Assembly: GCA_900617105.1 (NCBI GenBank)
Contig: UYFQ01000574.1
Location: 1-64,000 of the forward strand
Direction of reading: 5' to 3'
From: Hydrurus foetidus
Taxonomy: Eukaryota
DNA: 64,000 nt
The notes beneath the pieces are model-generated. The model ran no database searches and was not told where the DNA came from. It worked only from the letters and a program-made list of their open reading frames with translations. A program made the position numbers and the translations under genes. Below, in pieces: positions 5,460 to 59,620 of the stretch (positions are counted from its first letter, which is position 1; each line of letters opens with the position of its first letter).

Positions 5460-6848
5460 CGGGTACGCCCCATAACCTCACTCTAGCTTACTCCTCTCAA
5501 GAGAATGCGATTGTTGAACGAGTCAATAAAGAGACAAATAGACATCTGAAAGGACTGGTGTTCGATACACCGTCTCTTGTCCATTATGCAAAATGCATTC
5601 CGTTGGTACAACGAATTATAAATAGTTCGGTTAATAAACGTACGGGTGCAAGTCCAGCATCTATCCTATTCGCGGATAAACTTGATTTGAATCGAGGAAT
5701 TTAACACCTCATTTGTTACCGATGGTATCATCATCAAATTCAACATATATTGCTGATTTAATCGAGATACAGGACAAAGTCCTCGATGCAGCAATCGGCT
5801 CACTTCAGAAATGTGATGAAAAACACAAAAAGTCGACATCCGGTTTGACAGTGTTCCCTATAGGGTCGTATGTCTTGGTAAAACAAGAACACCCTCCAAC
5901 TCGATTACACACTAAATGGAAAGGCCCTTTCCGTGTTGTATCCTTTGAAGGATCCGAGTATGTTCTCGCGAACTTAATTACACATAAACACAATAGTGTA
6001 CATGTAACGAATCTTAAAATATTCAATTATGACCCTTCGATGGGCTTACCTGCTGATACAGCACGTCGCGATTACATGGAGTATTTCGTTGAGAAAGTTC
6101 TTAATCACTCGGGTGATACAAAGAAACCGACTACGATGTCGTTCCATGTGAAATGGCTCAACTATGATGACTCACATAATACATGGGAGCCTTGGAAGAA
6201 TCTCCGGCTCTGTGATGCACTCCATGTATACCTGAGGAACAATAACATGTCGCGTTTTGTTCCCAGGAATATTGAGGGATCAACCACCGAGGTTTGAGCT
6301 CAAACGTAATATCTTTTGAAGATTTTTTGGCCTAATTTTTGCCCTCACGAGGGATTTTTATGGTTTTTTAGTCAGTAAAAATCTGACATAATTACGTTTG
6401 ACCCTCGTACAACAGAACGATTCTGTTTTGTACATACTCCCTTATCCTTAACTTTCTCACCATTTCCGAAACCCCTTTGTAATTTCGTTTGTATATAATT
6501 TCGCATTTTTTCTAAAAAATATTGTATATATTTTTTGGTTATCGTTTTCCGTTATCATTTATGTCAAATATTGTTATTTTCAAACATAGAAACGGGGGTT
6601 TCGCCATAGTTTAGTGTAGTTTAGATTTTCTTTGAGAAAGAAGGATAAGTGGGGGTAGTGTGGTAGTTCCGGGTCCAAGGTCCCGATCCTACCGGATAGT
6701 ACTACGGTACACTACCCACCGTACACTACAGTCTGTTGTATCATCGTAGCCACTTACAGCCTCCACGTCGAAGTTCACCCTAGCTTCTAGCCTTTTAGCT
6801 GTAACTAACTACCGCCTCTAGACATCCTCCTCTTCTCTTCCCATCCGA
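5460..6848 (+). mobile_element. Gypsy chromovirus copy 2: 3' part (integrase C-terminus, chromodomain, PPT, truncated 3' LTR)
   Basis: Begins mid-integrase (GTPHNLTLAYSSQENAIVERVNKE). ORF 5713-6297 is nearly identical to 84-530. PPT GAGAAAGAAGGATAAGTGGGGGTAG ends at 6658 and is followed by LTR TGTGGTAG at 6659. Confidence 0.92.
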
Positions 6849-8730
6849 GTCATAGTTGTAGGTTTTGGAAATTTATAAGGAGGAGGTTGGTGGTAGAGAG
6901 GGCAGCGTCAGTTAATGTTGGCCCAGATGTAGAGCATTTGATAATGATATGTGTTAGTGAGCGAAGGGGGTCTGGTTGGTAGGTAGCGCCGCACCGTTGC
7001 ATGTATCCCAAACTGAAAAGATTGGCAGGGATGTTTGCGGAGTAATAGACATGGTTCATGTTGGCGGTGATGGGTAGGTGTTTGAGGAATCCTTCGTGTG
7101 TGATGACACAGTGACCACCAACACCAGACAGTGAGAAGGGCTTCCGAAGAGGTGTGAGATTGTATAAGAGAGTAATGTTGTTGACGGTGTGGAATGAGCA
7201 CGCGTTGTCCCAGTATGATGGTTTATGGGGGTGTGGAGAGGGCACGTGTGTTGGTTGAGTTGACGGCCGTTGTAGTGTGACAGGAGCAAGAAGACCTGTT
7301 GCGTCGGCCATTGCGGTGGGTCAGAGTAGCGTATCCGGGAAATCGGCAGCTGCAATGGCGGCTTCGGCAATGAGCATCATTGCATTGTTGGTGTCGTTGG
7401 GCGATTCAGTTGACTCCAGTTGGCTGAGTAGTGCTCGAAGGTGCGATGTTGTAGAAGGTGCTTTGTTGTTGTTAAGGGATGGAGTGGTGGTGCGATTTGG
7501 ATTTTTGGAACAGTTACTTGCTAGATGACCGAAACGCTGAACTTTATCGGCGGCTAGGCACCAAGAGCAAGGCAGTGGGTGGAGGTGTGGCGTTTTGGGG
7601 GATCCGGATGTTGTCTTTTTGTTTGATTTGTCGGATGTTGGCGTCTGTTTGAGATGTTGTGGTGGTGTGTTTGCTATTAAGGCAGATCCTTGCGTTGATA
7701 TGGCATCGTGAGGGATTGATAGTGCATGAGCTATTTTCCAATTTTGAAGTTCTGTCATTAAGAGACTTGTATTTGGGAATCGTCCTGATGATGTTGCGTG
7801 GAGTAAGTCATCGAGTGGTCGGCGAAAGTGAGTGCTGAGGCCTTGTAGGTATATGGCACTGGTGAATTTGCTAATGGAGACGTAGCCGGGGTGTTCAGCA
7901 AATTTGAAGTCTAGTCGGAATATGTCTGCTTGGTTTGTGATCTGCTCCATGTACGATTCATGCGACATGCTGTCTTGGGTTGCCGTAAGGAATCGTCGAG
8001 TGCGGTGTTTTGTAGAAGCATTGCCCGTGGAATGATTATCTCTAACCATCTTGTAATACTCGAAGCTACGAGCTCCAATTGGTAATAGTTGGTATGCGGC
8101 GAAGTTGGCGTGGGCGCGGATGGATGTATGTGATGCGAGGGATATATGACTGCAGATGTAGTCGAGTAGGGCTGTGTCGAAGTCTGAAAACTTATTGGCT
8201 GCGTCGTGATAAATTTTGAGGTCAGCTCTGAGTTCAGTGCTTCCTCGGTCGCTGAGAGGTAGGGGGGATGGGTTAAAATTTTCGGTGGCGACTTCGGCAG
8301 CTGTGAGTTGCCTTCGAGGATACACGAATTGATTTGGTAGTGGAATGCCGGCTGCGTTCTTTTCCAAGTCGAATTTTGTTTGTGGTAGCGGGAAGGGAGT
8401 GAGAGGGATGATCTTGTCGGTAATGATTTGTTGTCCAGCTGCACCAAATTTGGTAGTGCATTGGAGTTTAAATGCCTGGAGAAAGGCTGTCAAATTGTCC
8501 TGAAGGAGGTCGAGGACAATGGCAGGTAATGCGGTTGCTAACGGAGTGTGGCTATTAAGCATACTTTATAACCAAATGTCGGAATTGGCTGTGAAAGCGA
8601 AGAGCTTAACGGATGAAACAGATTTGGTTATAAGCTTACTGCTTACTGAAGCTAATGATATGTGGATTGTGATCGAGAGACGATGTTGTGGTGTATGTGA
8701 CATGTGCGTATTGGACGACAGTTTAATGAC
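6849..8730 (-). mobile_element. Truncated Ty1/Copia element (copy B), a divergent relative of the 24458-30106 element
   Basis: gag ORF 7321-8562 and protease ORF 6850-7311 (SYWDNACSFH) are homologous to 28561-29800 and the region downstream of it. LTR edge TGTCGG at 8577; outer LTR boundary approximate. Confidence 0.85.
7321..8562 (-). CDS. gag: Copia Gag with zinc knuckle (CSWC...GHLASNC)
   Basis: 413-aa ORF homologous to the gag of copy A. It ends in TGA, followed in frame by the protease. Confidence 0.8.
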   Translation of the reverse strand: MLNSHTPLATALPAIVLDLLQDNLTAFLQAFKLQCTTKFGAAGQQIITDKIIPLTPFPLPQTKFDLEKNAAGIPLPNQFVYPRRQLTAAEVATENFNPSPLPLSDRGSTELRADLKIYHDAANKFSDFDTALLDYICSHISLASHTSIRAHANFAAYQLLPIGARSFEYYKMVRDNHSTGNASTKHRTRRFLTATQDSMSHESYMEQITNQADIFRLDFKFAEHPGYVSISKFTSAIYLQGLSTHFRRPLDDLLHATSSGRFPNTSLLMTELQNWKIAHALSIPHDAISTQGSALIANTPPQHLKQTPTSDKSNKKTTSGSPKTPHLHPLPCSWCLAADKVQRFGHLASNCSKNPNRTTTPSLNNNKAPSTTSHLRALLSQLESTESPNDTNNAMMLIAEAAIAAADFPDTLL

Positions 8731-10310
8731 TTTCAAGGCATGAAAAGTTAGTGTAACGGTGTAGCGTATTAACGGTAGAATATACGAACAGTCTTTGATG
8801 AGGCCATGATTGATAAGTCGCTGAATCTTGCATCATGCTCCAGCTTTTCTTGTAGATGATAAAGCTTTTGATCATAAGTGACGGGCACGCCACTTGCGAC
8901 TTTGAGGACCCTGAAGGCCTCTTCGATGGTTGCCACATTCTCCTGAATGGTTTGTGTGGACTTGAGCTTCAGGGAGTGGAGCTGATCCGTTGCCTTCCTG
9001 ATGTCGCTGTTCTTTGTGCCGTTGATGTGATCGTAGATAGTCTTGAACCATAAGACCGCATCGTTGTCGGCAATTACACGCTTGATCAAATAATCTAAAT
9101 CTTTCCCAGTAACCATGTTGAGAATAACCAATAAGCGATCCAAATCGTATAATCGTTTGTAGATGTCATCAGCTGGGATGACATCATACGATCCCTCTTC
9201 TGCTAATACCAGTGACCTAGGTGAATACCCTCCAGGGTTCCGAGCAGTAATGACTGGTAACTCACGATCTCCTTTGGCTAATGTAAGAAGTTTACATTCA
9301 CCTAGAGCGACCATGAACGTTTCCATGTTGTCGCGGTTGTCCTTCCTAGAGTTGGAAAACTTGGGCATCGAAAAGAAGAATTTCGGTTGCGCAGAGGTGG
9401 TATCCAAATATTCCGAAATGGGCACCGATAGAGTAGAAGATTCCTTGGGCGTTGAAGCACTTGGAATAGAGGCAGATCCAACTTTTGATTTCGGTTGGGA
9501 GACCAACCGTGGAGGCTGTTGGATCTTAGAAGACATAATGTCGATGAGCCTTGCCATATCGGCGAAGGAAAATCTTGTCTCTGCATCCTGAGCCTCCAAA
9601 TTGTCCGAAAATAAAGTTGGCGCTGTGGCTCCGAGATTCCGCGCCCGAGGTGCTAGAGGTGGTGTCGGAACAGCATCCTGATTTTGAAGGGCTAATTCCA
9701 CCTCGTCTAGAAAATCACTATTTGGATTTTCTAAAGGAAGAATTGCTCCTGTCCTAGATCTTGTAACTCGACCAGTGAAGATGGGTTGAGCTGCTTCGAT
9801 CAGAGTTCTGAACGGATGTGTAAGAAGGTCGGCAAGAGCCGGCGGTGAGTCTGTGTTGAACAGCTCGAACTCGTCTTCAGATCCATTATCACTCATGATT
9901 GCAGGGTTCTGAAAGTTGAAGAAGGAAATTCAGAATCCTGGAATCTACGGCAATCGTTTAATCACTATAAACAATCGCTACCATGTAAGACTAAATACAA
10001 GATGTCACCTTCTAGCGTTCGCAGCGAAGGTGGAGAAGCAGCTGCAGGCTACTTTCTCAATTCAGTGAGCTATCGAGTAGACGAAGCTGTGAAGTACAAC
10101 GTATTAAATTCTGATTAGAGTTTACAGATAGCCACGCAAAAGAGCTATCAGAACAATTCATGACAGTGAAACTACCTTGAGACAAAGTTCACAGCGAGAT
10201 GTATTGTTCATAGCATGTGCTTGAGGAACGTTGCATGAATGCTTATAGTAACGAAGTGTTTTGGCGATACTGAATAATCATGAAAAGCGAACGTTCATTT
10301 GCGTGAGGTC
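8731..10310 (-). mobile_element. 5' remnant of a second Copia-like element (LTR, PBS, gag-like ORF 8769-9896)
   Basis: On the minus strand, ...TTACA is followed by TGGTAGCGA (PBS-like, 9975-9983, resembling the iMet-type TGGTAGCG). The 375-aa ORF has a UBN2/gag-like helical C-terminus. Outer LTR edge approximate. Confidence 0.6.
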
Positions 10311-11719: not shown

Positions 11720-13000
11720 CATTGATGGACCAAATCTTTCTATACAAGACTGTCCTACTGTAGAGCAAAAAGCAGAATGTTCCAAGTACCCATTCCGAAA
11801 AGTTGTTGGTCAATTAATGTACGGTATGGTACATACTATGGTAACAATTATGTACGCACTCAATGTTTTATCAAGATCTTGAATCAATCCAGGTCCAAGA
11901 CACGTTGTCTTTCTCAAACACCCACTACGTTATGTGAAACATTCCAAAGATGATCGACTCAAATTCAGCACTCACAACAGACCCACAGACATAAACACCA
12001 TGACAGAGTTTATGCAGCTATCGTTCGAGTGCGATGCAGATCTTGGAGGAAATCTCGATAATGGCCATTCACAAACAAGTTACTTAGGATATTTAGCCGG
12101 ATCACTTATATGTTGGTGTAGTACAGACCAAAGAAGCGTATCAACTTCGACTGCTGAATCAGAAATCAAGGCAGTTAATCACACACTAAAATGCGAAGTA
12201 ATCGCCAACCGTGGAATACTTAACCAAATGGGTTGGAACCAAAATTCAAGTGTAATTGAAGAAGACAACAGTGCATGTGTCACTTCCTTAAAAGTCGCTC
12301 ACATAACACGCAGTCTAAGGCATCTGAATTTAGCTCGATTTTGGATCAAGGAGTAAGTTGCTGGTGGAACTAGTACTATTATTAAGGTAGCTTCAAAGGA
12401 CAATAATGCTGAAATAGGTACAAAGCGTTTACTTTTACCACTATTCAATGCAGTGTCTTATAAGTTAATTGATAAAACACTTAATTATATTAATACATAA
12501 TTAATTAATATATCAAATATGATAATGCATATTAATAATAACATGATGGCATTTGAAAATGTGCGCATAGAAAAATACTAGAGTCAAATGATTTTTGTTA
12601 TAAAAATTATTAAACATCAAAAATATTTATTCACCATCTAATTTATTATTTAGCATCTAATTCATGGACATGTCAAAACTATCGCATTTAATCCTATTTT
12701 CCGAATGTTTACTGTAGCATATACTATATCCTTACTATGGGGAGTGCTGTAGTCGCGGCCGGATTCGAGTACGAAGAATCCGGGTAAAGACGGTATGCTG
12801 AGTAAACTGTTAGGTTAGTTACAGTTTGTGAAAGAAGCGAGCAAACAAATAACGACAAACACAAACGATAGGCTGCAAGGGTGCTGATGCTGATGAGCGT
12901 CCGTTACCGGTGGACAGGTGATGTGGATGAAAATAGACTATGGGTACGTGAATTATATACAAATGTGTATGAAGTGTACGGCGAACGTACGCGCTAGGCT
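11720..13000 (+). mobile_element. Copia 3' remnant: RT C-terminus/RNase H, short PPT and start of an LTR
   Basis: YPFRKVVGQLMY, CDADLGG, SVSTSTAESE and EEDNSAC, with stops. GGGGAG is followed by TG at 12745. Right boundary approximate. Confidence 0.8.
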
Positions 13001-15286: not shown

Positions 15287-16060
15287 ATGAAGATGCAAAG
15301 GAAGAACGGCGTTGCAAAGAAGGCGGTCAGGAGAACAAAGGCAGTTTTGATTCCCACAATCAAGTGGTTGATGGCTGACAACTTGTGTCTCTTGTATGCT
15401 ATTTGGGAGATGTGTACTCCTCTTCAGAAGCTGATCTTGACGGTAACCAAATGATTAACTTTCATTCAAGGCTGAACCCTCCTGCAAATGGCATCTCTTC
15501 TCATAAGCTACTATCAACTTCAGATGAACGGAAATTTATCCTTCGTTGACTCCTTCAAAAAGACAATGAACTTGCTGCCGAGTCAAAAGGTTATCAAAGG
15601 CATTTCTTCAGCGGATGTAAATTATTATCTTAGGTGGCTAAAATCATACTTGTTTGATCTAAACATTGAGGTAGATTATGTTTGGAGAAGAGTGAAAAAA
15701 GTAGATAAGAATACTTCTCGACACTTCAATGGTGACAGTGTCTATAAACTAATGAATGGTCGTATCGGTCAATACATTCTTTTTGGGAAAGCGAAGTGGA
15801 ATAATGACGCTCATCGAAAGCAAATAAAAAGATTGCGAGCTGCTGGGAACGAAAGGATGAGATTCAAAATCTACGGTATCATTGCTAATGGGACAAAGCA
15901 ATCTGATCATGCTGTTGGTGTATTCATTCGTGTTGATGATGATCATGTACTTTACGACAACTCCATGCGTAACATATCTTTGAAACTTACTGCGGACAGT
16001 CTAGCAAACAAAATGTCTGATGTGAGCTGCTGTTACATATTTGATTTGAAACATTTGTAA
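15287..16060 (+). CDS. Putative papain/C39-like cysteine peptidase, 2 exons (15287-15442, 15524-16060), about 230 aa
   Basis: A phase-0 GT-AG intron joins NLCLLYAI to DHAVGV and VLYDN. Homologous along its length to 20939-21559. Confidence 0.65.
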
Positions 16061-20938: not shown

Positions 20939-21559
20939 TTACTCCTTGACTTCGTACAGATTAACATAGAAACAATGAGAAACATCACCCATTTTATCAG
21001 CGAGGTGAAGGATGTCAAATTTTACACTGCCTTTGCGGCATGCGGTATCAAAAAGTAAATTGCCGGTATCTGCGATGCGAACACCAACCGAATGGTCGAT
21101 ACATTTACGACCGTTTGCTGTCTTCAAGTACTGAAGAGCTCTCGCCTCCTCTCCTTCGACGGCTCGGATCCTCTTCAGAATCTTAGGGTGCTCATCGTCG
21201 AGCTCTTTGCTAAGACCGATGAGGACGTAGTGGCCTTTCCTATTGACGACCGTCTTCATGATCGACCCCACGTCCCAATTCTTGAGCTTTCCCACCCTGC
21301 CGTTCACTCGCTTAAGTTCGTACTTGAGAATGATTCCTCTCTTACGGTTCTCTTCGACGACGAATTCGAAGAACTTCCTAGCGTCATGTGTGCTGGCGCC
21401 TTCGTGATCAGGGTCAGTAAGATCGATGCCGGTCGCATCCACGAAAACTTTTCCAGCGTCGTCTCCGCCGAGTCTCATCCACTCCTGTTGCTCCGCCGTC
21501 ATTAGCAAAACAATTGCGGCCGCGAAACACAGATTGCGACTCGGTTTGAATTCGTGCAT
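20939..21559 (-). CDS. Putative papain/C39-like cysteine peptidase, MULE cargo
   Basis: 206-aa ORF with NLCFAAAI, GASTHD, DHSVGV and LLFD; homolog of 15287-16060. Confidence 0.65.
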   Translation of the reverse strand: MHEFKPSRNLCFAAAIVLLMTAEQQEWMRLGGDDAGKVFVDATGIDLTDPDHEGASTHDARKFFEFVVEENRKRGIILKYELKRVNGRVGKLKNWDVGSIMKTVVNRKGHYVLIGLSKELDDEHPKILKRIRAVEGEEARALQYLKTANGRKCIDHSVGVRIADTGNLLFDTACRKGSVKFDILHLADKMGDVSHCFYVNLYEVKE

Positions 21560-23104
21560 GATTGATTTCTGATTCCACTTAAGCTATACTGCAGTATATA
21601 TCATACTTGACATCTTCAAATTAAGAGTCACTTTCACGTTCAGTGTCTAACGTATTTTTCAGGTTTTTTCATGCCGTTACTTTTCATGCCGTTACTTTTC
21701 ATGCCGTTACTTTTCATGTCCTGGTTCCATCAAATAGAACTAAATCCGTAAATTAGTACTGTGCAACCATTTCAGTATAACTTCTTAGAAATAGTAGGTT
21801 GATCTCCATTTTAGTCAGGGTTACATTGAATAGTACCAAATCCATGAATTAGTATTGCGCAACTATTTCAGTGTAACTTCTATGAAATAGTAGCCTGGTC
21901 TGCAATTTAAGGTATCAAATCCATATTTCAGTATGGCTATGTTTTGGTCAAGTTTACAAGATTTTAGTAGAGAACGTTAGTTATAGTATTTTTTTCCAGA
22001 TTTTAGTATGTCCATATATTTACCCGAAGAGAATCTGGCAAAGTCTACCGGACTTTTTGAAATATTGGGGGAATTTGCAAATATTCGTTGTGTGACGATG
22101 AAGTCAAATCAAGGTTATCTCCAGGTATGGTCTCGACTTCTCAACTCCTCTCGACCTCGAACTTTTGAAACCCCCCGACAACTCCACAACGTGGAACGTT
22201 GAGTGGATAACCGCTAAAAGCTTCGTAACAGCATGCGTAGCGGAGTTTGAAACAGATGATTGATACATTGCAACAAAAACATATTAGTTCAACATGGGAA
22301 ACGCAAACACAAACGTAAGATCACCCACTCAGCCATCACTCGCGAGAACAGCAATGATCTAATCACTAGTTCATCACGTCAATCGATCCCCTCACATCTT
22401 ATCTGAACATGTCGTGGCATCCTCTTATCATTCGCAGCCAAGTGCCATGTTCGGCAAAGACTCCAAATTTTCAACCGATGGTAAAACCAAAGAATCAGTT
22501 ACAACTCCGATCCAGTACGAACCCCTCGCCGTCCCTCCAAACTATTCGAAGAACTCCCCACCAATGATCGACTACAGCAAACTTAAACATCCAGAGGTTT
22601 TACCTGATGTGAAGACCTTAGTAGCTATGATACCGACAACATATGCCAACGGCACCTTATCATACAACAAGAAGTTCTACGCTAGTTACGTTCCGAACAC
22701 CATAATTGGTGACGTGTAAGCATTCAAAACAATCAATAGCGTCATTTCCAAGGTTGGCAGAACTGACGTCGCTCAGAACAACAAGAAGTGATCGATCTGC
22801 CCTCGCCCCTACGTGTGTTGTAAATTTTTGTATCAGGCAAAGCGATTTGAAATGTTAACAGGCGACTGCCAGCAGGAACTGTAATTAATTAGATTACTGA
22901 CGAGAGACACTTGTCCGGGCAAGAGCCTTGCGGTATACTTTCTACCAGATAGATGAGAGAAGACAAGAATAAATATACCACTGTGAATAAACTTATGAAA
23001 TCTAGAAAAATGCCGGCGATAATGATTGAGCGACCAGAGATCCAGAATTCGACTGAATGTCACTTCGCGAACATTGCTGCGGAACTGCCAAATATCGCAC
23101 CAGT

Positions 23105-24155: not shown

Positions 24156-24457
24156 GATTATGAATGACACTACCCACTATAGTGATGGTCGATTATAATG
24201 ATGGTCGTATATAATTAGCGATGTGTAGGCTCGCGTTAAAAGGCTCGTGTTAATAAACGTCTCGAGCGCTGAATCTTTGCAATCAGTAAATTATTTTGTT
24301 GCCGATAGCCGATCAAAAGAGCTGCTTCAGTTTTGAGCTCCGATTACCAACAATTGTTTCAGACCTGATCAAAATTTGGCGGTGTCATCAATCCCCAATA
24401 TGGATTGCAAAGGAGACCAAAGTCCATGTCTGTTTCCGATTTTGAAACAGCCAACAG

Positions 24458-24721
24458 TGTCAGGAATCGGGACCAAAACCGGAAAGGAATCGGTAGAAAC
24501 AGAATTGCTTAAAGGTTTACTGGTTAAAAGATTGTGTGAGATGTGAATGAATGAACGATTGTAATTATGTGAATTGTGAATCATGCGATGTCGAATGCTA
24601 TGCACTTCAATGTTGAAATGTTAGAACTTCAATGTTGAAATGTTGGGACTTCAATGTCGAGATGGTGGAACTTCAACGTGTTGGATGGTTGTACAGTGTA
24701 TGTGTATACAAAACAATGACA
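24458..24721 (-). repeat. 3' LTR of Copia A
   Basis: Identical to 29843-30106; contains internal ACTTCAATGT repeats. Confidence 0.95.
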
Positions 24722-24807
24722 TGCGCCGGTAAGCTATATGCTAAAGAGTGTGTAGCTTAAATGAAAATAGGAATACAGGTAAGGATTAGGTGGAAGAGTT
24801 AGTGGTA

Positions 24808-27800
24808 CTATGTTTTACGAGTTGACGGAATATTTAACAGTTGGCTCCGAAACCATAGGAATTTAGAAGGGGATAGAGTTTTAGTGAGCCCATCCGCTAT
24901 CATATCATGAGTGCTTATGTGGCGGGGTGCAATTTGGTTTGTTTTAAATAGCCAGCGGACGTAATGTGATTTAAGGGCTATGTGGCGCGATTTGCGTGTA
25001 ATTTGGTTGGCTGTGGTCAGGTTAATGGCGGGTTGATTGTCTTCAAGTATGGTAGTGGGTTGGTGTTGTGGGAATCCTATGTCAGCAGCGAACTGTCGAA
25101 AGAAAACGACATCTTTGGCGCAGCGACCGAGTGCAAGGTATTCTGCTTCACAGGGGCTGAGGGCGATACCTGATGTTTCCGCTGAGGAGTGGACAACGAA
25201 GGGTGCATTAACTGTGCCTATTTGGATGGTGTAAGCAGAGTGGGAGTGACCATCTGGATGGCATGCGTGTGAGGAGTCTGCAGCCGCGAAGATGGTGACG
25301 CCGGATGTGAAAGCAAGTGGGTCGGTGGAGTAGGTTGGGCCGAGGTTAGGGCAGCCTTTTAGGTAGCGAAGGAGATGGATTTGTTTGGAGAGGTCTGATT
25401 GAGTTGGTGCAGAGTTGCGGGTACAAAGATGGACGACTTCTTTGCGGATATCGTGGCGAATAGGAAGAAGGAATACGAGGGTTCCATTGATTCGTAGAAA
25501 GCGTGTGCGGTCAACGGGGGTTAGGTCAGTTGGAGCATCGAAAAAATTGGAGGTGGAGGGAGTGAGAGCGGGTGGGACAAGGTCCATTCCTGATTGGTGG
25601 AGGAACTTGATTATGTGTGCGCCTTGATCTAGAGTGCAGGAGTGGTCAGAATGTCGGGTAAGGCGGACACCACAGACGCCTGTGGAGGCATCGTTGAATG
25701 CAATTGTGCCGTAGCGAGTCTGTAGGATGTGTTTTAGTTCATTTTGTAGAGTAGTGGATGTTGTTACATACCAGCCGTCGTCAACGTGCATATTAAGAGT
25801 GAGTGAGTCGTCAGTATTGACGGGACATCGCTTGTGAAAACTATGGTGATCTGATGCAGTGGGGATGAATCCAGCTTCTGTGAGGGTATGTATTAGATCT
25901 TTATCGTATTCGTGGTTAGCTTGCTTTATGCCGTAGCAGCAGCCAGTTATCTCTGCAAGCTTGCCTGCAAGGGGGCTTGGAAGGTCTGGTGGAAGGATGG
26001 CAATGAGTTGATGCCCGTTGGTCATATCACGTGTAAGCTTGTTGTGGAGAAAGGCTCCAGGGAAGTCGAAGTCGCCTAGGAGGAGGCGGTCAAGACAACT
26101 GCGATGGGAGGCATCTGCTAAGTAGGCACTTAGTATGAAAGCACGGTTGGTGGTGTCGGAAGTGCCTGCGTAGGTGTTGTTGTAGGATTCTGGCGGCTGG
26201 CGACTGCCGTCGATGGCTAGGCGGGCGGTAACAAGGCCGTTGGACTTTTTCTTAATGAGCATTTGGCTGCGAAGAAAGATTGCCTTTGTTTCGACACTCG
26301 ACTGAGGAATGAGAGTTAGGGACTGGTATGTGTCGAAATGTTTTCCTAGTTCTTTTGAAATTCCTGTGGCAACATCGGCCGTGGGAAGGAGTAATGAGGC
26401 TTTGCGAATGGACATTTCTGCACGTGAGCTGGGTAGGGGTTGCGGTTGGAAGTCAGTATGCCTATTGTTCAGGGGAGTGTTGGAGGGGTTGTTGAGTCTG
26501 TGTTGCTTGTTTCTAGCCGCTGCCAGTTTAGCATTATCAAGCTTGCGTTGAATTGCATTGATGTAGGCAGAGATAGATGGGTTCGACTTTATCAAAGGAG
26601 TGCTAAAGCAGCCCTTCCAAAAGTTAGTTGGGTGTGAGGCCCTAGGTGACCTACGTAGTGCGGCTGGTGTCTCGGGTGGTAGGTTGGGTAGTAGTGTCCC
26701 GAGAGGTATTGGTGTTGGTGTTGGTGTTGGTGTTGGTGTTGGTGTTGGTGTTGGTGTTGGTGTTGGTGTTGGTGTTGGTGTTGGTGTTGGTGTTGGTGTT
26801 GGTGTTGGTGTTGGTAGTGCAAAAGTTGGAGCTGAAGCACGGGGTATGTAGTCTTGGTGTAGTTGAGGTTGGGGCATCAAGAGGGAGGAGTGGAGGTCAG
26901 CGGGTAGCGGAGATGGAATGTAACCGGTGACTGTAGCTATGGCTTCAGTGTGAGCGATGCCTGGTAGTTGGATGACCTCATTTGGAGTGCTAGCAACTGG
27001 TGGGAGTTCGTAGTCTGGAATTGTTGATTGGATAACGTATGGCTTGGAGGTCCAATCGAAAGGTACAAAGTGTTGTGGGAAAGGGGTGGTAGGTCTTCTG
27101 GGAACAATGGAGCCGTTAGCAAGGAGGAAAAGCGTACGGCCTGTGAGGGTATCTGGGCCCATGCAAACTCCAAGTTCAGCTTTGGGTTCGGCATTGGCTG
27201 CGGTGTGGTTGTTGCGAGCAAGGGCATGGCGTTTGTCGGGATGTTGAGTTACCATGCAACAGCGGCCGAAAGGAAAGGGGCGTCGGGTGGGTTTATAGCC
27301 TCGGAGGAGCTCATCTGGAGTTGATGGGGCGCTGCGGGTGTTCATTAGAGTATTGCGGACAGCAGCGATGGCTTTGTGTAGGTGAAGGGTGTACTTTAGT
27401 GGGAGGTGGTACGGTAGTGCTGATAGTGTGGCAGTGGTGATTTGCCGGATGGTAAGAATTGAGCGTTCAACACGGGCAGCGTGCTCACCAGGAGGTGATG
27501 TCTGAAGTGTTATCCCTAGCGAACCGAGTGGGCTTGCGAGTGATGTATTCACTTTCTCGCAGTCGCCGTGTAGTGTTTGGACTCGGTGGCGATTTGAGTT
27601 GTATGTGACGGATATGATGTGCTGTAGGGCTTTGAACATGGCGGGAGTTGATTTCGAGGAGGAGCCAATCACGGAAATATGTCCTGTGAATTCGTCGACT
27701 AGTATGATCTCGTGTGTATGCATGCCCGGGGATGGTTCGGGGAGTAGCTGTGGATCAAAGCTGATAACAGCACCGACGGAGGTTGCGGGAGCGCTTGTTG

Positions 27801-28560
27801 AAGGAGGATGAGAGGGGTTGCGGTGTTTACCCGCTGTACAATGGGGGCAGGGGCCTCGAAGTTGGCGGTTGAGGGTGACATCGGTGCATGTGAGGGTACT
27901 GAAGGGGAGCTTGCCCGTGGAGAGGTTGGCGCAGAGGCTGCGGTCAGATGGGTGGCAGAGATCATTGTGGAGTTCTTCTGCTGCATCAGCGCGTGCCCTT
28001 TGTTCGGCGTTAGCATGAAGGGTGGGGAAGGTGGTGGACATAGCGAGGGGTTGGTAGTATGCTGCGGGAGACAACGTAGAGGCGTGGTGGAGTGCGGCGA
28101 AGTCGACTGGTAGTAGGTTGTGTGCGGTTAGAGTTGCATGCGCTAGGAGGGGACCGGATGGTGAAGAGAGGATGGAAATGTGAGTGTGGGGACGGAGAGG
28201 ATCAGGGCTGTATGAGGCTCCACATCTTTGAAGTTGGCCGAGACTGAGGAGATTGACGGGTATGGTGGGGGAGAAGTATGCTGAGTTCATGGACTTTGTA
28301 GTGGGGAGGCAGAGGAGACGGCCGCTATGTGTGACTGGACATGATCCACCTACTACTCCGATGGAGAAGGGCGTGGCGAGTGGGATCATATTGTAGAGGA
28401 GCGAGGCGTCGTTGACTGTATGAAAAGAGCATGCGTTGTCCCAATACGAGGCGTTGGGTGTTGAAGGGATTGCTGTAGGGGAGGCGAGAGCGAGAGGACT
28501 GGAGAACAGGGCGGAGGGATTTGATGCGTGACAGAGGTTGATGGCAGGGTTGGATCCTAG
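24808..28560 (-). CDS. pol: Copia Pol (protease, integrase, RT, RNase H), in frame after the gag TGA
   Basis: SYWDNACSFH; LHNDLCH..CPHC; D,D,E; DFPGAFLH; YGIKQA; HVDD; ADSSHA; EAEY; EDNQ; ADGLTK. Open from 28560 to 24808. Confidence 0.93.
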   Translation of the reverse strand, partial: LGSNPAINLCHASNPSALFSSPLALASPTAIPSTPNASYWDNACSFHTVNDASLLYNMIPLATPFSIGVVGGSCPVTHSGRLLCLPTTKSMNSAYFSPTIPVNLLSLGQLQRCGASYSPDPLRPHTHISILSSPSGPLLAHATLTAHNLLPVDFAALHHASTLSPAAYYQPLAMSTTFPTLHANAEQRARADAAEELHNDLCHPSDRSLCANLSTGKLPFSTLTCTDVTLNRQLRGPCPHCTAGKHRNPSHPPSTSAPATSVGAVISFDPQLLPEPSPGMHTHEIILVDEFTGHISVIGSSSKSTPAMFKALQHIISVTYNSNRHRVQTLHGDCEKVNTSLASPLGSLGITLQTSPPGEHAARVERSILTIRQITTATLSALPYHLPLKYTLHLHKAIAAVRNTLMNTRSAPSTPDELLRGYKPTRRPFPFGRCCMVTQHPDKRHALARNNHTAANAEPKAELGVCMGPDTLTGRTLFLLANGSIVPRRPTTPFPQHFVPFDWTSKPYVIQSTIPDYELPPVASTPNEVIQLPGIAHTEAIATVTGYIPSPLPADLHSSLLMPQPQLHQDYIPRASAPTFALPTPTPTPTPTPTPTPTPTPTPTPTPTPTPTPTPTPIPLGTLLPNLPPETPAALRRSPRASHPTNFWKGCFSTPLIKSNPSISAYINAIQRKLDNAKLAAARNKQHRLNNPSNTPLNNRHTDFQPQPLPSSRAEMSIRKASLLLPTADVATGISKELGKHFDTYQSLTLIPQSSVETKAIFLRSQMLIKKKSNGLVTARLAIDGSRQPPESYNNTYAGTSDTTNRAFILSAYLADASHRSCLDRLLLGDFDFPGAFLHNKLTRDMTNGHQLIAILPPDLPSPLAGKLAEITGCCYGIKQANHEYDKDLIHTLTEAGFIPTASDHHSFHKRCPVNTDDSLTLNMHVDDGWYVTTSTTLQNELKHILQTRYGTIAFNDASTGVCGVRLTRHSDHSCTLDQGAHIIKFLHQSGMDLVPPALTPSTSNFFDAPTDLTPVDRTRFLRINGTLVFLLPIRHDIRKEVVHLCTRNSAPTQSDLSKQIHLLRYLKGCPNLGPTYSTDPLAFTSGVTIFAAADSSHACHPDGHSHSAYTIQIGTVNAPFVVHSSAETSGIALSPCEAEYLALGRCAKDVVFFRQFAADIGFPQHQPTTILEDNQPAINLTTANQITRKSRHIALKSHYVRWLFKTNQIAPRHISTHDMIADGLTKTLSPSKFLWFRSQLLNIPSTRKT
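26711..26815. repeat. (GGTGTT)n hexamer encoding a (PT)n linker between integrase and RT
   Basis: About 17 perfect units, in frame within pol. Confidence 0.95.
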
Positions 28561-29800
28561 TCAGGCGGTGTCTACGTATTCTGAAGCCTCGATGGCGGCC
28601 TCGGCGATGAGGAGCATGGCCGCGTTGGATGCATCTGGGGTGGCTGCGAGATCAAGTTGGGTAAGGAGTGCTCGAAGACGCTGCGATGTGCTGGAGGGGT
28701 AGTGGGACGATGGTTGCGGAGGAGAGGTTGAGTTTGGGTTTGGTACGCGGTTGGGGTTCTTAGAGCAATGTGCGGAGAGGTGACCGAAGCGTTGGATCTT
28801 ATCTTTAGCTAGACACCAGGTGCATGGAGTTGGGTGAAGATGGGGCTTAGGGGCGTTGGGGATGTTGCCTGCAGTCTTGGCAGCTGGAGATTTGGTGCGA
28901 GTGGTGATGGGTTGGGACGCAAGAAGGGCAGAGCCTTGAGTGGACACGTCGTCGCGGGTGAAGGAGAGTGAGTTGGCGATTTTCCAGGCCTGGAGTTGTG
29001 ACATTAGGGCTGTAGGATCAGGAAAGCGGCCAGTTGGGTGGTTGTGGAGGAGTTCATCTAGTGCGCGGCGGAACTCAGTACGGTTGAGGCCAGCGAGATA
29101 TAGGAAGCTGGTGAGCTCTGGGATGGATACAAAGCCAGGATGGACGGTGGATTCGAAATCCAATTTGAATGTCTCTGTCATTGAGTTGACAAGGTCGATG
29201 TAGGCTTCGTGGGGTAGGTCAGATTGTGTAATGTTCATGTAGTTGCGTGTGCGATGAAGCTTGGTTGCTGCGTTGCCGATGGAGTGGATGCCCCGGATCA
29301 TGACGTAAAAGGCGTAGCTGCGCGCTCCGATTGCCAGCAGTTGGTATGCAGGGTAATTAGCATGTGTTTTGATGGCGATGTGGGAGGCAAGAGATATGTG
29401 TCTGTAGAGATGATCGAGGCAATCGGTGTCTTGGTCTGAAAAGCGCCGTTGGGCATCATTGAAGATCTTCTTGTCGTCGCGGTAGTTGGTGTTGCCTTGG
29501 GTGCTGAGTTGGAGGTGGAGTGCGTTGCCGGCTGGTTCGCCTTCGGGTGGAGTGCGGCGTTGGTAAATGTATTCTCCTGGGATTGGTGTGCCAGCAGGAT
29601 CGAGGTCGAGATCGTTCATGGTTGGTTCGTTTGCGAATGGATGTAGAGGGATGAGTCGTGATCGGTGAGGAAATTTGGTTGCCTGCGACGCCAAATTTGG
29701 TGAAGCATAATAGTTTCAGAGACTGGTTCCATGTGGACCAGTTGTCTTGATGGAGGTCGAGAAGTGGCGCTGGTGCCAATGAGGTTGCCTTGGATAGCAT
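28561..29800 (-). CDS. gag: Copia Gag with a frameshift near 29655-29670
   Basis: The N-terminus (ORF 29456-29800) and the body (ORF 28561-29694) each align to the single gag ORF 7321-8562. Zinc knuckle CTWC...GHLSAHC. Confidence 0.8.
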
Positions 29801-29842
29801 ATTGCTGCAGAGGATCGGATGATGCTTTGAACCTTAAGCAAT

Positions 29843-30106
29843 TGTCAGGAATCGGGACCAAAACCGGAAAGGAATCGGTAGAAACAGAATTGCTTAAAGG
29901 TTTACTGGTTAAAAGATTGTGTGAGATGTGAATGAATGAACGATTGTAATTATGTGAATTGTGAATCATGCGATGTCGAATGCTATGCACTTCAATGTTG
30001 AAATGTTAGAACTTCAATGTTGAAATGTTGGGACTTCAATGTCGAGATGGTGGAACTTCAACGTGTTGGATGGTTGTACAGTGTATGTGTATACAAAACA
30101 ATGACA
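29843..30106 (-). repeat. 5' LTR of Copia A
   Basis: Identical to 24458-24721. Confidence 0.95.
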
Positions 30107-31342
30107 AACAGCCAACTCCAACACTCGAACTCAACTCAACTGAAATTTTGAATTTTGAGTCTGTGAAAATGTGAAATTATTTTCACCAATCTGTCATGAT
30201 ATCCGTAAGATACGGAACAATTTACAGTTTACAGTCAGTTTAACCTCATCAGTCTTTTTTAATTTTGTTGTCACGACTGTTGATGGATTTAGGGTTCATA
30301 CCGAAATGCTTTCACAGAAATTCGTAACCTGAGAAGTCTTCAATTTTGACACAGACCGTCCCCTGGATCCTTTAGTACTGCTGCTCTACCGGATATCATG
30401 GAACAAATTGGCTTACTCCTCGGCTTCTAGGGATGTCCAAACAAACCATTATCAGTACCGCAGAAATGGATAGTACGAAATGTCTACTGATAAGTAAAAG
30501 CATTGCACGTACTTGATCACAATGGATAGTTAAAATTGCAGAACGAAAAATAAGAATCGCTTGTTCAGTACATTATTCATTATTCGCTTACAGAATCTGC
30601 GTAATTTACACAACCCAGAGAGTTTCTAGGTAGAGACAATCAATGAAAGCACAGCATATCATGAGAGATATTCAATTTGATGGCTGCTCAGTATCAAGGA
30701 GGAAAGGGAATGAACAGCTCGGATGCCTTGTGTTTCATGCTATATTCTAGCGGTGTTGTGGCAGCGGACTCGGATAATACTATAATACTATATCATCAGT
30801 TGAAGATGAAAACGGAATCAAGATTAAAATGTCTCCATAAATCGCTAATTATCAAGATATCTTGAATTTAGAATCTGAAAATTTCGCCGCATTTGATGAA
30901 AGAAAGGAGGATAGTGACAAATGATGAGCCTGTGTCGGTGTCTCTGATAAAAACAGATTAATAGCGCATTTAACAACGAATTGAAACTTGTCCGCGAAAT
31001 AGCACCGGTTACTCTCTTTGCCCCTATTACCACCCTTGCAGATTTGACCCAGAAACTGCAGTTCGATGGCATGACTTACTCAGAAAATGCGTAGACTGGA
31101 GAGAGCAGCGGTGCATACTTGACACGCAACTCTACGGTGCGAAGAGAATGATCTCGTGATAAGCTAACAACGAGCAATTCAAACACCCAACTCTACTTGA
31201 TACCCTACCTACCCACCTACCTACCTGCATACAGCAGATTAAAACAGTTCAAGGCACACGTTACAGTCTTCCGTGACCTGGCCGGCAGAGACAGTTAGTT
31301 CTCTACCATCGATCGAGACCTCAAAACGAAGAATCTGTAAAA

Positions 31343-47387: not shown

Positions 47388-49410
47388 ATGACCTTTGGAA
47401 TATTACAACAACCAAGCGTCTCCTTTCTCATAAGTTCCGCACGCTGCTCAGTGCAGAACACACAACAGTAGAGGGAATAACTCTGATCCTACAATCTCCG
47501 TACATCAATTAGTAGGGTCATGAGTCGCTTCAAAGGTTACATGTAAGAGTATAAATAGCTTTTGGGGAGAGACTTAACTGATCAATTAATGGAGGAATTT
47601 ATTTGTCAAACTCTATCTTTCTTTTTTCTGTCGACCGTACTTGCACCACAACATTCAGTATGTAGTGTCGTGTGAATCTACATTCTCATCGAATATGAAG
47701 TGGCAGTAACTACAGACAAGGCGCGTCGCGGCTAGTGCCACCACTCGAATGAGTCACTGTTACTTCTTCGGCAATATTCGGCAATAAATTCATAGGCAAG
47801 ACCACCACTTTCTGCAATGCCGAACACCCAAAGGAATTCATAACATGGGCTCGCAACGGCTCTTCGGACATTTTGCGAAGGCAACATCGTGGTGTTTACT
47901 GAAGAACAACGCATATTTCTGAAGAACATCAACAAACAGACGAAAAAGGGACTTTGAAACGCGATAATGAAACTGCAGACTCAGAAAAATTATTATCGTG
48001 TAGTGCGCTCACGCGATGTTGGTCAATCATACTGTGTAGGTGCCAAAGCGAAAAAAATGACTCAAACTAGTCCAGAGTGTTTCGAACCATTGCTTTAAAG
48101 AGTGCTGTTCCATATAAAGGAGACGCTTTCATTCATGACAGCTGTACATAATGAGGTTGTGAACATTTCTTGCCCCGAACTGTAGCATCACCGCTGATAA
48201 TTCTCGCACTGAGCTTGCATAAGATTATACAGCTGTCATCTCCGCATGTAGAATATATCAATGGATTAAAAAATATAATTCAAGTCAATTATAGTACTGC
48301 GGGAGAAATAACATTTCCTCAATTGAGTTATGCTTCTTTGTTACACTGTGTGTAGCTTGTAAATGGTTCGAAAATACTAAACCTTGCATCCGAGACCTTG
48401 AGATACTGTTGTATTATCGGAAACAATTGTATAACAATTGAGCCTCTGAAAGAAACCTGCCTGTCTACTGTGAAAGAATCCCTCCCACCTTAGGGCAGTA
48501 TTGATCAAAGGAAAAAATCTTAAAACGTTTTACGACATCGAGAAGATGATGATTCGCCAGCCAGTGCCCCGTGAATCAAGCCCATTATTGTGACCCAACT
48601 ATTTCTTTCATGCGTTTTCTTATAATATCAAAAGGTATCGGAACGGTATGAAGATTCCGTGTTCGGTTCTGGTTCGAGCTACCCGGAGATACGGGCTGGT
48701 GACGTCAAGAAACGTGAAATACGGTTTTGGAAAAAAACATCTTAAAAACCCCGTTTTTTGGAAAAAAAACATCTTAAAAATTGAAATCCTCGATTTGGGC
48801 ACTCAAACAATCGAATGGAAGCACTGGGCAAGCATCACATCTGTTTGCTCGATCCCAACACGATGGCTGTGCCTCTGACGAATCTGAATTTATGACATGA
48901 ATCAGTATGATGTGATCTAAAGTGTGACCTCGATGCTTTTTTGAGTTCCGTACTTCCGCAAATTTTATTGCGATGACAAGATATCCGCCAAATTTTAGTT
49001 GACCAAAAAAATTTGAAAAAACGAAAAACGAAAAAAGCATCGAGATAGTGGTGTGTGGATTTTCATTTCGGTTCTTTTGAGCCATCAGTTACAAAAAATG
49101 ATTCAGTGGCTGAATTGGGAAACGAAAATATATACTTTTGCCCGGTACAGGCGTCATCAGCCTGTAACACACACGTACTTAGCGGTTGGACCCTGGATCA
49201 GAAATTCTCCTACGTGGTGAGAAAATCATACCCTCGTACACAATATCAATATTTCGTGCGATGTGTATGAATATGAAGAATTTTAATATGTTCAACTCTT
49301 CAACTCTGCAACTCTGCAACTCTGCAACTCTTCAACGCACTTTAGTTTCACCTCTGGTTCGACAGCTACGACGTTTACCATTCGTTGTCAACACAACAAA
49401 AGAGAAGAAC

Positions 49411-49898: not shown

Positions 49899-50238
49899 AC
49901 GAATTTTAGGAGACATTAAAATTTACGTCGTCACACTTTTGGATTTCCGGAACTCTCGTACTTCAGCAACCGCACGCCGCTCAGTGCAGAACACACAACA
50001 GTAGAGGGAATAACTCTGATCCTACAATCTCCGTACATCAATTAGTAGGGTCATGAGTCGCTTCAAAGGTTACATGTAAGAGTATAAATAGCTTTTGGGG
50101 AGAGACTTAACTGATCAATTAATGGAGGAATTTATTTGTCAAACTCTATCTTTCTTTTTTCTGTCCGCCGTACTTGCACCACAACATTCACCATGTGGTG
50201 TCACCACAACATTCACCATGTGGTGTCACCACAACATT

Positions 50239-55592: not shown

Positions 55593-56404
55593 TACTATAT
55601 CGGAGCTACAATGAATAAATATTACCGGGACAGAATAAAATGTCCAGTAGATATGAACGAATCCGAGGTGGAAATGGTGATTTCAACAGCGCTCAAACCT
55701 GTTTTCCTTCTCTGTTTTGGACATTTTATTCTGTCCTGGTAATATACTGTAACTTTTCGGATTGGAATGTATTGACTTTTTCCGTCAACATGAGCAGACA
55801 GCAGACCGTGCTGATAAATCGTTGTACACGCAGTAGTGCCGTATGTTAGCAGTGACGACTGTGCGATAAAGGAGCATAAAGTGCTTGCGACATTGATTTA
55901 TTGACGTCACTGGAAACGTGGCATTGATTCCAGCTGCTGATACCATGGATTGAATTGGTTAGGACCCACTAGATCTTTTTTCAGTAAATAAATCCCACCT
56001 TACAACTTTCGGCACCCAACTCTCACCTTCCAACTCAACTCACTTTACAACTTTCACCTTACAACTCAACTCACCTTACAACTTTCACCTTACAACTCTA
56101 CTCACCTTACAACTCCCACCTTACAACTCTCACCTTACAACCCTCACCTCACGACTTATTCACCTTGCAACTCCGACTCATAGGTGGCGGAAATTTAAAA
56201 AAAGTTTATCGAAGTGTATTTTTTAATCTCAGTATAATATCTGTTATTTCTTTACTTTCGCTTTTTCAATTTTTTCTAGTGAACAGCCAATTATTCTCCG
56301 AGGCATTCAATCGAAAGGCACTTTACGATTTTCTTTAGATAAAGTGGGCCTTGATCATGAGCGACAAACTTTCTGAAGCCAACCGCACCAAAATGCAAAA
56401 TCTT

Positions 56405-56480
56405 CGCGTCCTTGGAAAAATCGAACCCTCGGTCCTGATGGTGTGAGCCCCACGCCGTACCACTTAGCTACACAGAAACC
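56405..56480 (-). other. tRNA-like (Val-CAC-like) degenerate sequence with A and B boxes
   Basis: Minus strand GGTTTCTGTGTAGCTAAGTGGTA..CTCACAC..GAGGGTTCGATT. Stems pair poorly, so probably not a functional tRNA. Confidence 0.45.
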
Positions 56481-56690
56481 GCGTACACAACGGCAAAAAT
56501 ACACAAACAAATAGTACGTTCATACTTAGGCTTATCGTCACCTCGGGTCAACACTTCACAGAACACTGTTAGATTCATCTTTTTGACGTTATGAAAATTG
56601 AAATGCAAAAATCTAAAAGGTTATAATTGATATTATGTCATCTCTATTCCTGATAGAAAATCTCGTCAACTTGCTAAATTTCTTTGTACG

Positions 56691-58312
56691 ATGCTTCATT
56701 TTAGCAGGAAGTCCGCGAAAGGAAATAATCTGTTGCAGATGAACAACAAGTTATTTTCTAAAACCAAATTTGCTCATGATGTTAATGGAGAAATAACAAA
56801 ATGCTATTGGGTTTGCGTAAACATTCGCAAAGGCTGTAAGGCGAAGGTTCATTATGAGGTGGACCTTGATGTAGCGGGTCCAGGTTACGATGGAATGACA
56901 GATGGAATCATCAACGTCGTAGCGACTGATCATGACGATGAGTATTGCGTTACAGATGAGATGGACATTGCCGTTAGAAATGCAAGGAACAATGTGCTTA
57001 GAGAATCAACCTCTGGTAAGTTCAATACCGTATTTCACTATAAAAAAGTTGTTTTTCTGATTTGTATCATTTTCAGGTGTGGACCTATACGTTGCATATG
57101 CAAATGTAATGAATCCTATTCAGCTGGATAATCCAGTAGCTGCAGGACAGATGTTTACTGCGGACAGTCTGCATAGCGCCTATAGTCGACGAAGGCTCTC
57201 TGTCTTACCAAGATTACCTATTGGCTACAACGACGTTATTATACCAGAAGAATACAGAAGAGCTGAGAATGGGCATCAATTTCTACTTTTCCAAGATTCC
57301 TTTCCAAATATTCCTGGCGGACCTCTCGAGAACCATATTCTATGTTTTGGTACAAGGAAATTCTTAAAGAAAATGTGCAATGCAACAGTAGTTCACATGG
57401 AGGGGACTTTTCAAGTTTGTCCAGCACCTTATCAGCAACTTTTTACCATTTGCTCATTTCATCACGATGACAACAGATTGCTTCCGAGAATGTATTGCTT
57501 ACTAAGCGGAAAATCTCATATCGTTTACGAAAGGTTCTTCCAACTCGTCATCGAGAAAGCCGCTCATTGAAACTACGATATCAACTGGCAGAAGTCGATG
57601 AACATTCCATTTTTGCCGCTTTGACAGTGAAGTTTCCAGATGTTGATAAAAAGGGATGTCACATTCATTATTGTCAAGCGCTATTCAGGAGAATTCAGCG
57701 CAATATGAAAGTAAGTTTCAAATTTATAGTGTTCCTTCCTTTACCTGAGATTTGATTTTTTTCAATTATCATGATCATTAGGTAGCATACGATCGGGAAG
57801 AGACTGGTCTAAGAGTGGTGATGAGAAAAAAATTTGCATTAGCGTTTCTCCGACACGAAAAAACTCCCACACAGATCGCTGATCTTCGCCAAGTTCTCAA
57901 CATTCTCACCAACGATCTAATGGCATTAGTCGGAGACGACATTAGTGCTGCTCATGTAAATGACTTCCTTCAGTACTTCAACCATACTTGGATGGGGCGT
58001 TTACGGTCTTGGAACGTCTATGGATTGAACAAGAACAGAACAAACAATCACATGGAAGGTTGGCATTCTCATCTCATCCAAATGATTAACAGCAATCCTA
58101 ACCTCTGGAAGTTCATCACAAAAATCAAATCAGAGCAGACTGCCAAAGAACTGGAGCAAAATCAGATGAATAACGAGGCAATCATTGTCCCACTCACACA
58201 CAAACTGAAGGAAAAAGAACGAAGGCTAGCAAGAAGCAAACAACGGTATAACAATAATGAGTTAACCCCACTCGAGTATGTTTCAACGATTTCTAATCTT
58301 ATGCATTACTAA
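56691..58312 (+). pseudogene. FLYWCH-MULE transposase, disrupted
   Basis: YWVC..CKAKV; HMEGTF (usually DGTF); GCHIHYCQA; RTNNHMEGWH. Stop and deletion at about 57570-57600. Confidence 0.85.
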
Positions 58313-59276
58313 ATCATATACGAAATCTAACTTGAATCGTCGATACGACTTTAGGGAACCATCCACCATACCATCATCGATTGCAAATTTCGTCACTAAA
58401 TCCCGACATAATCATCAATTAATCGAAGGCACTTTACTGTCGTACGTAACTCTAAGCCTCGCTCTACGTGGTCGAATTCTGACTTCTGATAAAACAGTAT
58501 CGAATTAATCATATATATATTTTGATTACACATTTCAATAAATAATAAGAACGATTTCAATTCATTTTAATAATTCAAGTCATCAGCACATAAAAGATTT
58601 TGCCACTAGAATTCGCTGTTCAGTTGAAAATGATTTGAAAATATGATTCGAGGGTTCGATTTTTCCAAGGACGCGAAGATTTTGCATTTTGGTGCGGTTG
58701 GCTTCAGAAAGTTTGTCGCTCATGATCAAGGCCCACTTTATCTAAAGAAAATCGTAAAGTGCCTTTCGATTGAATGCCTCAGAGAATAATTGGCTGTTCA
58801 CTAGAAGAAAATTGAAAAAGCGAAAGTAAAGAAATAACAGATATTATACTGAGATTAAAAAATACACTTCGATAAACTTTTTTTTAAATTTCCGCCACCT
58901 ATGAGTCGGAGTTGCAAGGTGAATAAGTCGTGAGGTGAGGGTTGTAAGGTGAGAGTTGTAAGGTGGGAGTTGTAAGGTGAGTAGAGTTGTAAGGTGAAAG
59001 TTGTAAGGTGAGTTGAGTTGTAAGGTGAAAGTTGTAAAGTGAGTTGAGTTGGAAGGTGAGAGTTGGGTGCCGAAAGTTGTAAGGTGGGATTTATTTACTG
59101 AAAAAAGATCTAGTGAGCGATGACCACTGAATTGCATACCAAATGTGACACGAAATGTGACACGAAATGTGACGTGTTTCGCTAATGCGGAAATTAAAAA
59201 ATGAATGATGTCTGCATGGATTATGTGCATAATACAGCAAACAGTGTTACCTTGCGGTGTGAACTATCTATTGTAC

Positions 59277-59448: not shown

Positions 59449-59620
59449 TATTGTACGGAACGGACACTACATGTGTTGTACGTGCGCTAATCAACAGTCA
59501 CTTTGTCACTTGCACTACCAGGTTAGATGTTGATGTTATTCCTTCTAATAAGTTGCCAATATTTCCAAAGCATCGTCAGACATCTTCTCAACAGCACTCA
59601 CCTTAGAAAGCGATTCCGAA

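Follow-up and report, generated by a model that had tools for sequence, protein, structure and literature searches.

How does a retrotransposon make Pol when a stop codon closes gag and pol continues in the same frame? The question is raised by a Ty1/Copia element (copy A) on the minus strand of a 64,000-nucleotide stretch of DNA from Hydrurus foetidus (contig UYFQ01000574.1; the whole stretch is hereafter the window) and by a divergent second copy (copy B) in the same stretch. The original prediction, read from these letters, held that Pol is made by programmed readthrough of the stop.

The element and its gag-pol junction

The two LTRs of copy A are identical and a 5-bp target duplication, CTGTT, stands on both sides of it; hence its insertion is recent, and it is a young Ty1/Copia retrotransposon. 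It has the PR-IN-RT-RH domain order of this superfamily, along with TG...CA LTRs and the 5-bp duplication, whereas the usual, though not universal, tRNA primer site and polypurine tract are not recognizable. Its features, in the direction of transcription, are:

29843..30106, minus strand: 5' LTR, TG...CA, 264 nt, 100% identical to the 3' LTR
28564..29800, minus strand: gag, family length about 411 aa, with a CX2CX10HX4C knuckle; frameshifted near 29659-29672
28561..28563, minus strand: in-frame TGA closing gag, ...GCC TGA CTA GGA as read on this strand
28557..28560, minus strand: CTAG, the 3' context of the stop and likely readthrough signal of copy A
28450..28560, minus strand: spacer from the stop to the protease motif; in frame, stop-free, unstructured
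28438..28440, minus strand: predicted catalytic Asp of the protease, in a YWDNACS motif, codon 41 after the stop
28387..28389, minus strand: earliest in-frame ATG of pol, codon 58, giving 1193 aa
24808..28560, minus strand: pol frame, PR-IN-RT-RH, open for 1250 codons and ending in TAG
24458..24721, minus strand: 3' LTR, 264 nt, same sequence as the 5' LTR

The stop-to-stop frames 29715-28561 and 28560-24808 are one and the same reading frame. Gag had been predicted to end TGA CTA G with the frame open into pol, and the first in-frame ATG, 28389, to lie after the catalytic Asp and to open a 1193-aa pol; both statements hold, with the stop at 28563-28561 followed by 1250 open codons, and the ATG at codon 58 against codon 41 for the Asp. 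A frameshift in gag had gone unseen: the family gag start is ATG 29800, the 411-aa homolog P0026 maps to copy A in two frames, and near 29659-29672 the window has 2+2 extra bases relative to the contigs of all four sequencing runs compared, either through a mutation or through an assembly error. Copy A also differs from the run contigs at 29789-29816, 29618 and 28355 (several substitutions), and its ATG 29619 is peculiar to the window relative to the contigs of the four runs. By their labels, the runs containing the element are metagenomes of sediment, freshwater or air and, in one case, a coded organism.

In the pol translation the Pfam profiles Pol_BBD (39-114) and RVT_2 (825-1001) match, both below their curated cut-offs, and RVT_2 also matches 10 of 16 relatives; we further recognize in it what we take to be the HHCC, DDE and RNase H motifs. 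The protease Asp is invariant in 10/10 aligned sequences, nine of which match the start of Pol_BBD below cut-off, and it is by this match together with the invariance that the Asp is assigned. The protease motif (28438-28449 and its counterparts in relatives) reads D-N-A/C-C-S and is kept also in fused outgroups; the usual protease motif is D-S/T-G. A protease fold predicted from the ten sequences was unusable (mean pLDDT 44.4), and two matches from a PDB sequence search (E 0.29 and 0.76) were taken as chance.

Copy B comprises:

7324..8562, minus strand: gag, about 50% identical to the copy A family
7321..7323, minus strand: in-frame TGA, CTC TGA CCC, with C at +4
6850..7320, minus strand: protease frame, in frame with gag; the element is truncated after the protease

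Here the original prediction was right that gag ends TGA CCC (7323-7321) with the protease following in frame, but it passed over the truncation and an in-frame ATG (7311) at codon 4 after the stop, ahead of the Asp at codon 38. This ATG could be a start of copy B's own Pol. Copy B has no integrase and is absent from the trees discussed below.

Conservation of the stop

Alignment of pol retrieved 14 loci, of which eight include the junction region. In seven of these, which represent six separate families, a long gag frame is closed by one stop and pol goes on without a change of frame; the gag of L003 is interrupted by a further stop. The Pol proteins of the stop-bearing loci are 39-48% identical to that of copy A. 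At L004 (529-850), which lies inside the lineage with a conserved hairpin, the end of gag runs into the protease with no stop, spacer or hairpin between them, and the upstream gag looks decayed. Two loci, L013 and L014, are Copia pieces in bacterial metagenome bins and are probably stray eukaryotic contigs that contaminate those bins.

With the two copies of the window there are eight distinct junctions (A, B, L003, L005, L006/L007, L008, L009 and L014), and at all eight gag and pol share a frame across a single stop. The stop is TGA at seven and TAG at one (L014), while none of six pol frames ends in TGA. The distance from the stop to the Asp is 38, 40, 41, 42, 42, 44, 46 or 49 codons, that is, there are seven spacer lengths, and every spacer is free of stops in the shared frame and has a stop in another frame. 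By our own estimate, if spacer indels were under no frame constraint, six independent ones would all have a length divisible by three in about one case of 700. Except in copy B, no in-frame ATG precedes the Asp (7/8 junctions).

At the protein level, a search for gag homologs limited to 193-616 aa gave 80 clusters of 45-97% identity. A C-terminal motif, called by regular expression, is present in 55 of them: 52 end four residues past the motif, two end five past it and one runs on for 22, so that gag ends at the same place in 54/55. The 25 clusters with no motif match are mostly fragments or frameshifted, and two of them end at the same place by eye. The search for longer homologs, weak by the tool's own note, returned no longer, fused form of gag. 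With the gag end fixed in these homologs and all eight junctions in frame, the sense codon in other intact copies that the original prediction had named as a refutation did not turn up.

Among sequencing runs, all four compared (from three studies, some possibly the source of the window itself) contain a contig identical to copy A over all 111 bases of 28530-28640, which argues that its stop is not a sequencing error. Sixteen divergent contig pieces were found by their likeness to copy A, one of which looks unrelated. Twelve cross the stop, the TGA being deduced from alignment end points: nine of the twelve alignments end at 28558/28559 and none at 28560-28564. Three divergent pieces with an earlier alignment end display TGA-CT directly in their loose ends. 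The loose ends of copy A relatives are C-rich and diverge right after the CT. Scans of metagenome and viral contigs with a gag pattern, and of viral contigs with a pol pattern, found no relative; hence, for the copy A lineage, the window and these short loose ends are the only sources of junction DNA. Judged from the sequences compared, the stop is a trait of the whole family and clade.

Phylogenetic setting

In a 31-row Pol tree from a quick search, the loci with the stop fall into three branches that belong to a single clade, and four fused Gag-Pol proteins lie apart from it. For an integrase tree, a profile search of 1.84 billion representatives was reduced to 138 rows by dropping those with fewer than 230 profile positions; it recovers a 65-row clade (support 88), with an inner group of 56 rows (support 99), which holds all the junctions that have an integrase. 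Fused Gag-Pol proteins make up 0/57 of the database proteins inside the clade versus 38/73 of the rows outside it, in trees that are quick and midpoint-rooted and where database proteins scored as split may include contig-edge fragments. The stop is therefore likely to be derived, and the same distribution suggests that it was likely gained once from a single-ORF ancestor.

Stop context and RNA structure

C follows the stop at +4 at six of the eight junctions. The two that lack it, L005 (TGA-T) and L014 (UAG-G), have predicted hairpins, with z -2.46 for the former and only -0.61 for the latter. The post-stop triplet is CUA in copy A and CGG in L003; the others (CCC, CAG, CCG and CCG) keep just the C. 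The description of UGA-CUAG as a leaky context agrees with the literature, where UGA-CUA/CGG is a known readthrough signal (PMC3159437).

The folding of the 3' flank, proposed as a check along with the original prediction, gives a divided picture: a conserved hairpin is predicted in five sister families, whereas copy A is unstructured. Its post-stop RNA folds worse than shuffled sequences (z +1.09 over 100 nt and +2.00 over 150 nt), and the extended 3' stem-loop of the readthrough class is absent from it; copy B has slight structure (z -0.49). In the five families (L003, L006/L007, L008, L009 and L014), GGGG at +7..+10 and TAG at +14..+16 are invariant and pair, in 5/5, with CCCC and CTA 57-75 nt further on. 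Higher up the stem, neighbouring pairs have A-U/G-C and U-A/A-U exchanges, which are compensatory. The arms were anchored by motif search and the pairs counted by script, MAFFT having left the 3' arms out of register. The z scores of these few, related families are -2.59, -3.16, -1.92, -1.49 and -0.61. The Gly codon at the hairpin is GGG in 5/5, as against 51/466 of Gly codons generally. The post-stop segment is the most structured of 11 segments in L003, L005, L006 and L008, third in L009, and unremarkable in L014 and copy A; L005, with its TGA-T, has a hairpin of its own. In this small sample, the modelled signals of the clade fit the class of UGA-CUA/CGG plus stem-loop.

Proposed readthrough and other possible routes to Pol

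The best reading of these data, and one that we regard as highly probable, is that Pol would be made as a Gag-Pol fusion by ribosomal readthrough of the conserved in-frame stop. The proposal of the original prediction is thus supported as an inference by the in-frame conservation, the open spacer and the want of an ATG at 7/8 junctions. Most ribosomes would terminate at the stop and release Gag; in a few percent of cases a near-cognate tRNA would decode it, and readthrough by this minority would leave the excess of Gag that particles need, with the protease cleaving the fusion afterwards. As copy A lacks structure and its relatives diverge right after the CT, its lineage would rely on primary context, UGA-CUN alone; the sister lineage would combine UGA-C (in one case UAG-G) with a long stem-loop starting 5-6 nt past the stop.

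An intron that takes the stop out of a minority of transcripts, with Y-TGA-C as its branch point and a nearby AG as acceptor, is improbable. The branch-point consensus is YURAY, and its DNA form YTRAY is matched around the stop of A, B and the majority of loci; moreover, a phase-1 YAG lies within 25 nt past the stop at 8/8 junctions, and is invariant at +16 in the five hairpin families. It is because of this fit that splicing deserves weight, and in copy A there are in addition pyrimidine-rich stretches resembling acceptors, whose ends are at +62 and +88. However, no GT occupies the same aligned position in the same phase in more than five of the eight gags, and a strong donor is missing from A, B and L009. 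The TAG of L014 breaks the branch motif, and the near AG of copy A, at +4, leaves too little distance to the presumed branch point. With an intron there would be no need for spacers of seven lengths all to remain open and in frame, and the run contigs, which are not recorded as RNA, contain no canonical splice joint.

Separate production of Pol, be it from a promoter at the junction, by ribosomes that reinitiate once gag has ended or at a non-AUG codon of the spacer, is unlikely to much the same degree. It draws on the ATG at codon 4 of copy B, on the weak promoter activity reported for the Tca2 junction (PMC2194720), and on the 17 of 48 inner-clade database Pol proteins that are called with a start ahead of the Asp. 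The called starts vary, however, and include GTG: P0106, which equals L005 over the integrase, starts at the GTG of L005. An ATG ahead of the Asp fits copy B alone, the other seven junctions having none, and L006/L007, L009 and L014 also lack CTG, GTG, TTG and ACG before it. Independent starts would not hold gag and pol in one frame, and a free Pol would have to enter particles in some other way.

Readthrough is to be preferred, too, over other forms of recoding, namely RNA editing of the stop to Trp, selenocysteine insertion or ribosome hopping, whose chance we put as very small. A hairpin beside a stop can also serve such routes, and could do so here. Against them, copy A has no hairpin, L014, which has UAG beside the hairpin anchors of the other families, speaks against selenocysteine, and an Rfam scan of 24300-30300 (E up to 1) gave no matches, SECIS included.

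Finally, a chance mutation or assembly error, or a host that reads UGA as an amino acid, has a negligible probability and is rejected: although the copy A of the window differs elsewhere from the run contigs, the junction is identical in 4/4 runs and the gag end is fixed across 45-97% identity, and UGA reassignment is excluded because TGG serves as the Trp codon at eight places in copy A and at 41 in eight other long frames of the window, one relative moreover having TAG.

Priming and genomic surroundings

Three further sites of copy A bear on its replication:

29834..29843, minus strand: primer-binding site position; not of tRNA type, pairs with the element's own LTR
29888..29897, minus strand: site in the 5' LTR complementary to the primer site, the predicted self-primer; 10-bp perfect, shuffle P 0.0004
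24722..24735, minus strand: conserved mixed, non-purine motif of 14 nt at the expected place of the polypurine tract, common to L003, L008 and L009

In 6/6 testable elements (copy A, the 8577 region, L003, L006, L008 and L009), 9-12 bp of pairing are predicted between the primer position and a stretch that lies 32-57 nt inside the element's 5' LTR; the paired sequences come in three co-varying variants. This suggests that the clade likely self-primes in the manner of Tf1, for which self-priming has been shown (PMC7175516); self-priming has also been predicted for the plant Copia element TAR. No polypurine tract precedes the 3' LTR in copy A, L003, L008 or L009. The idea of a tRNA anticodon-loop match at the primer site was dropped, as the motif occurs in copy A and in 0/14 loci.

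Other repeats populate the window. Chromodomain Gypsy remains at 84-2814 and 5469-6374 are two opposed copies that form long inverted repeats. Fragments of an unrelated Copia-like element (gag-like and RNase H-like) lie at 8769-9929 and 11883-12356, one of them abutting the copy B LTR, and a Mutator-like element at 55945-59137 has a FLYWCH domain and long inverted repeats at its ends. At 15476-16060 and 20939-21583 lie two related ORFs of no recognized family; a scan of one ORF per place gave no match in Pfam. A 233-nt direct repeat (47437-47669 and 49970-50202; 97% identical, 2.5 kb apart) surrounds a likely host gene fragment. The proteins at 59552 and 49183 start with what are presumably bipartite plastid-targeting signals; together with the labels of the runs, they point to an ochrophyte alga as the host.

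Comparison with known systems

A gag-stop-pol layout is rare but already known. Our literature search, whose coverage left out most subscription papers, found none on this clade or on readthrough in ochrophyte Copia elements. Plant elements are described as mostly single-ORF, with Arabidopsis Copia elements using splicing; the CoDi elements of diatoms may have one stop or frameshift, and the passages on them contain no signal analysis (PMC2806351).

The original prediction named Tca2 of Candida albicans, a Ty1/Copia element, as a known exception with a stop. This is correct as to its gag-UGA-pol organization, but VdLTRE5 is a further Copia precedent (PMC3441728). For Tca2 it is reported that Pol follows the LTR promoter, and that a 300-nt segment spanning the stop produced no readthrough in yeast and had weak promoter activity (PMC2194720). 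Likeness to Tca2 is by layout: Copia order, a single in-frame UGA between gag and pol and, in part of our clade, predicted 3' structure. In contrast, copy A has UGA-CUAG with no predicted structure and a likely algal host, and the trait here marks a whole clade rather than one family. In VdLTRE5 of Verticillium dahliae a UGA likewise separates gag from pol, readthrough was proposed and the layout was called very rare (PMC3441728). That element is fungal and is described from two copies with no signal identified, whereas in our clade families share a conserved context and hairpin.

Of the Copia elements with a gag stop, Tca2 alone has been put to the test, and its junction gave no readthrough in yeast (PMC2194720). 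The present clade offers many natural junctions, including a textbook leaky context, a hairpin conserved within one of its branches, a junction with UAG instead of UGA, and outgroups with a single ORF; hence Copia readthrough becomes testable by signal swaps in reporters. If the reading is true, it would mean programmed readthrough in a likely stramenopile host, and natural variants for dissecting the readthrough signals of Copia.

Among viral signals, alphaviruses and tobraviruses use UGA-CUA/CGG with an extended 3' stem-loop, and MuLV uses UAG with a pseudoknot (PMC3159437). The former resemble the UGA-CUA of copy A, the UGA-CGG of L003 and the long stem-loop that the sister lineage is predicted to have a few nucleotides past the stop; the differences are a stem that starts 5-6 nt past the stop as against about 8, and the missing stem of copy A.

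A parallel in design is offered by the Ty3/Gypsy elements Tj1, Tosmo1-3 and Tcry1 of fission yeasts, which have an in-frame TGA followed by CT(A/G), derived relative to single-ORF kin, the stop of Tj1 being reported as essential (PMC10085805). Tf1, a relative of Tj1 and Tosmo, self-primes (PMC7175516). The in-frame TGA-CT of copy A and the probably derived stop of its clade have their counterparts there. Theirs, however, is another superfamily, with PR-RT-RH-IN order and a chromodomain, and with a conserved GAA before the stop where the codon varies here; the likeness is one of convergence, not kinship. On balance, we lean towards the view that a large, undescribed clade of protist Copia elements converged on the Tj1 design of self-priming combined with stop readthrough, which it would have gained once from single-ORF ancestors and would operate through two interchangeable signals: a bare UGA-CUN, or UGA/UAG with a long conserved stem-loop.
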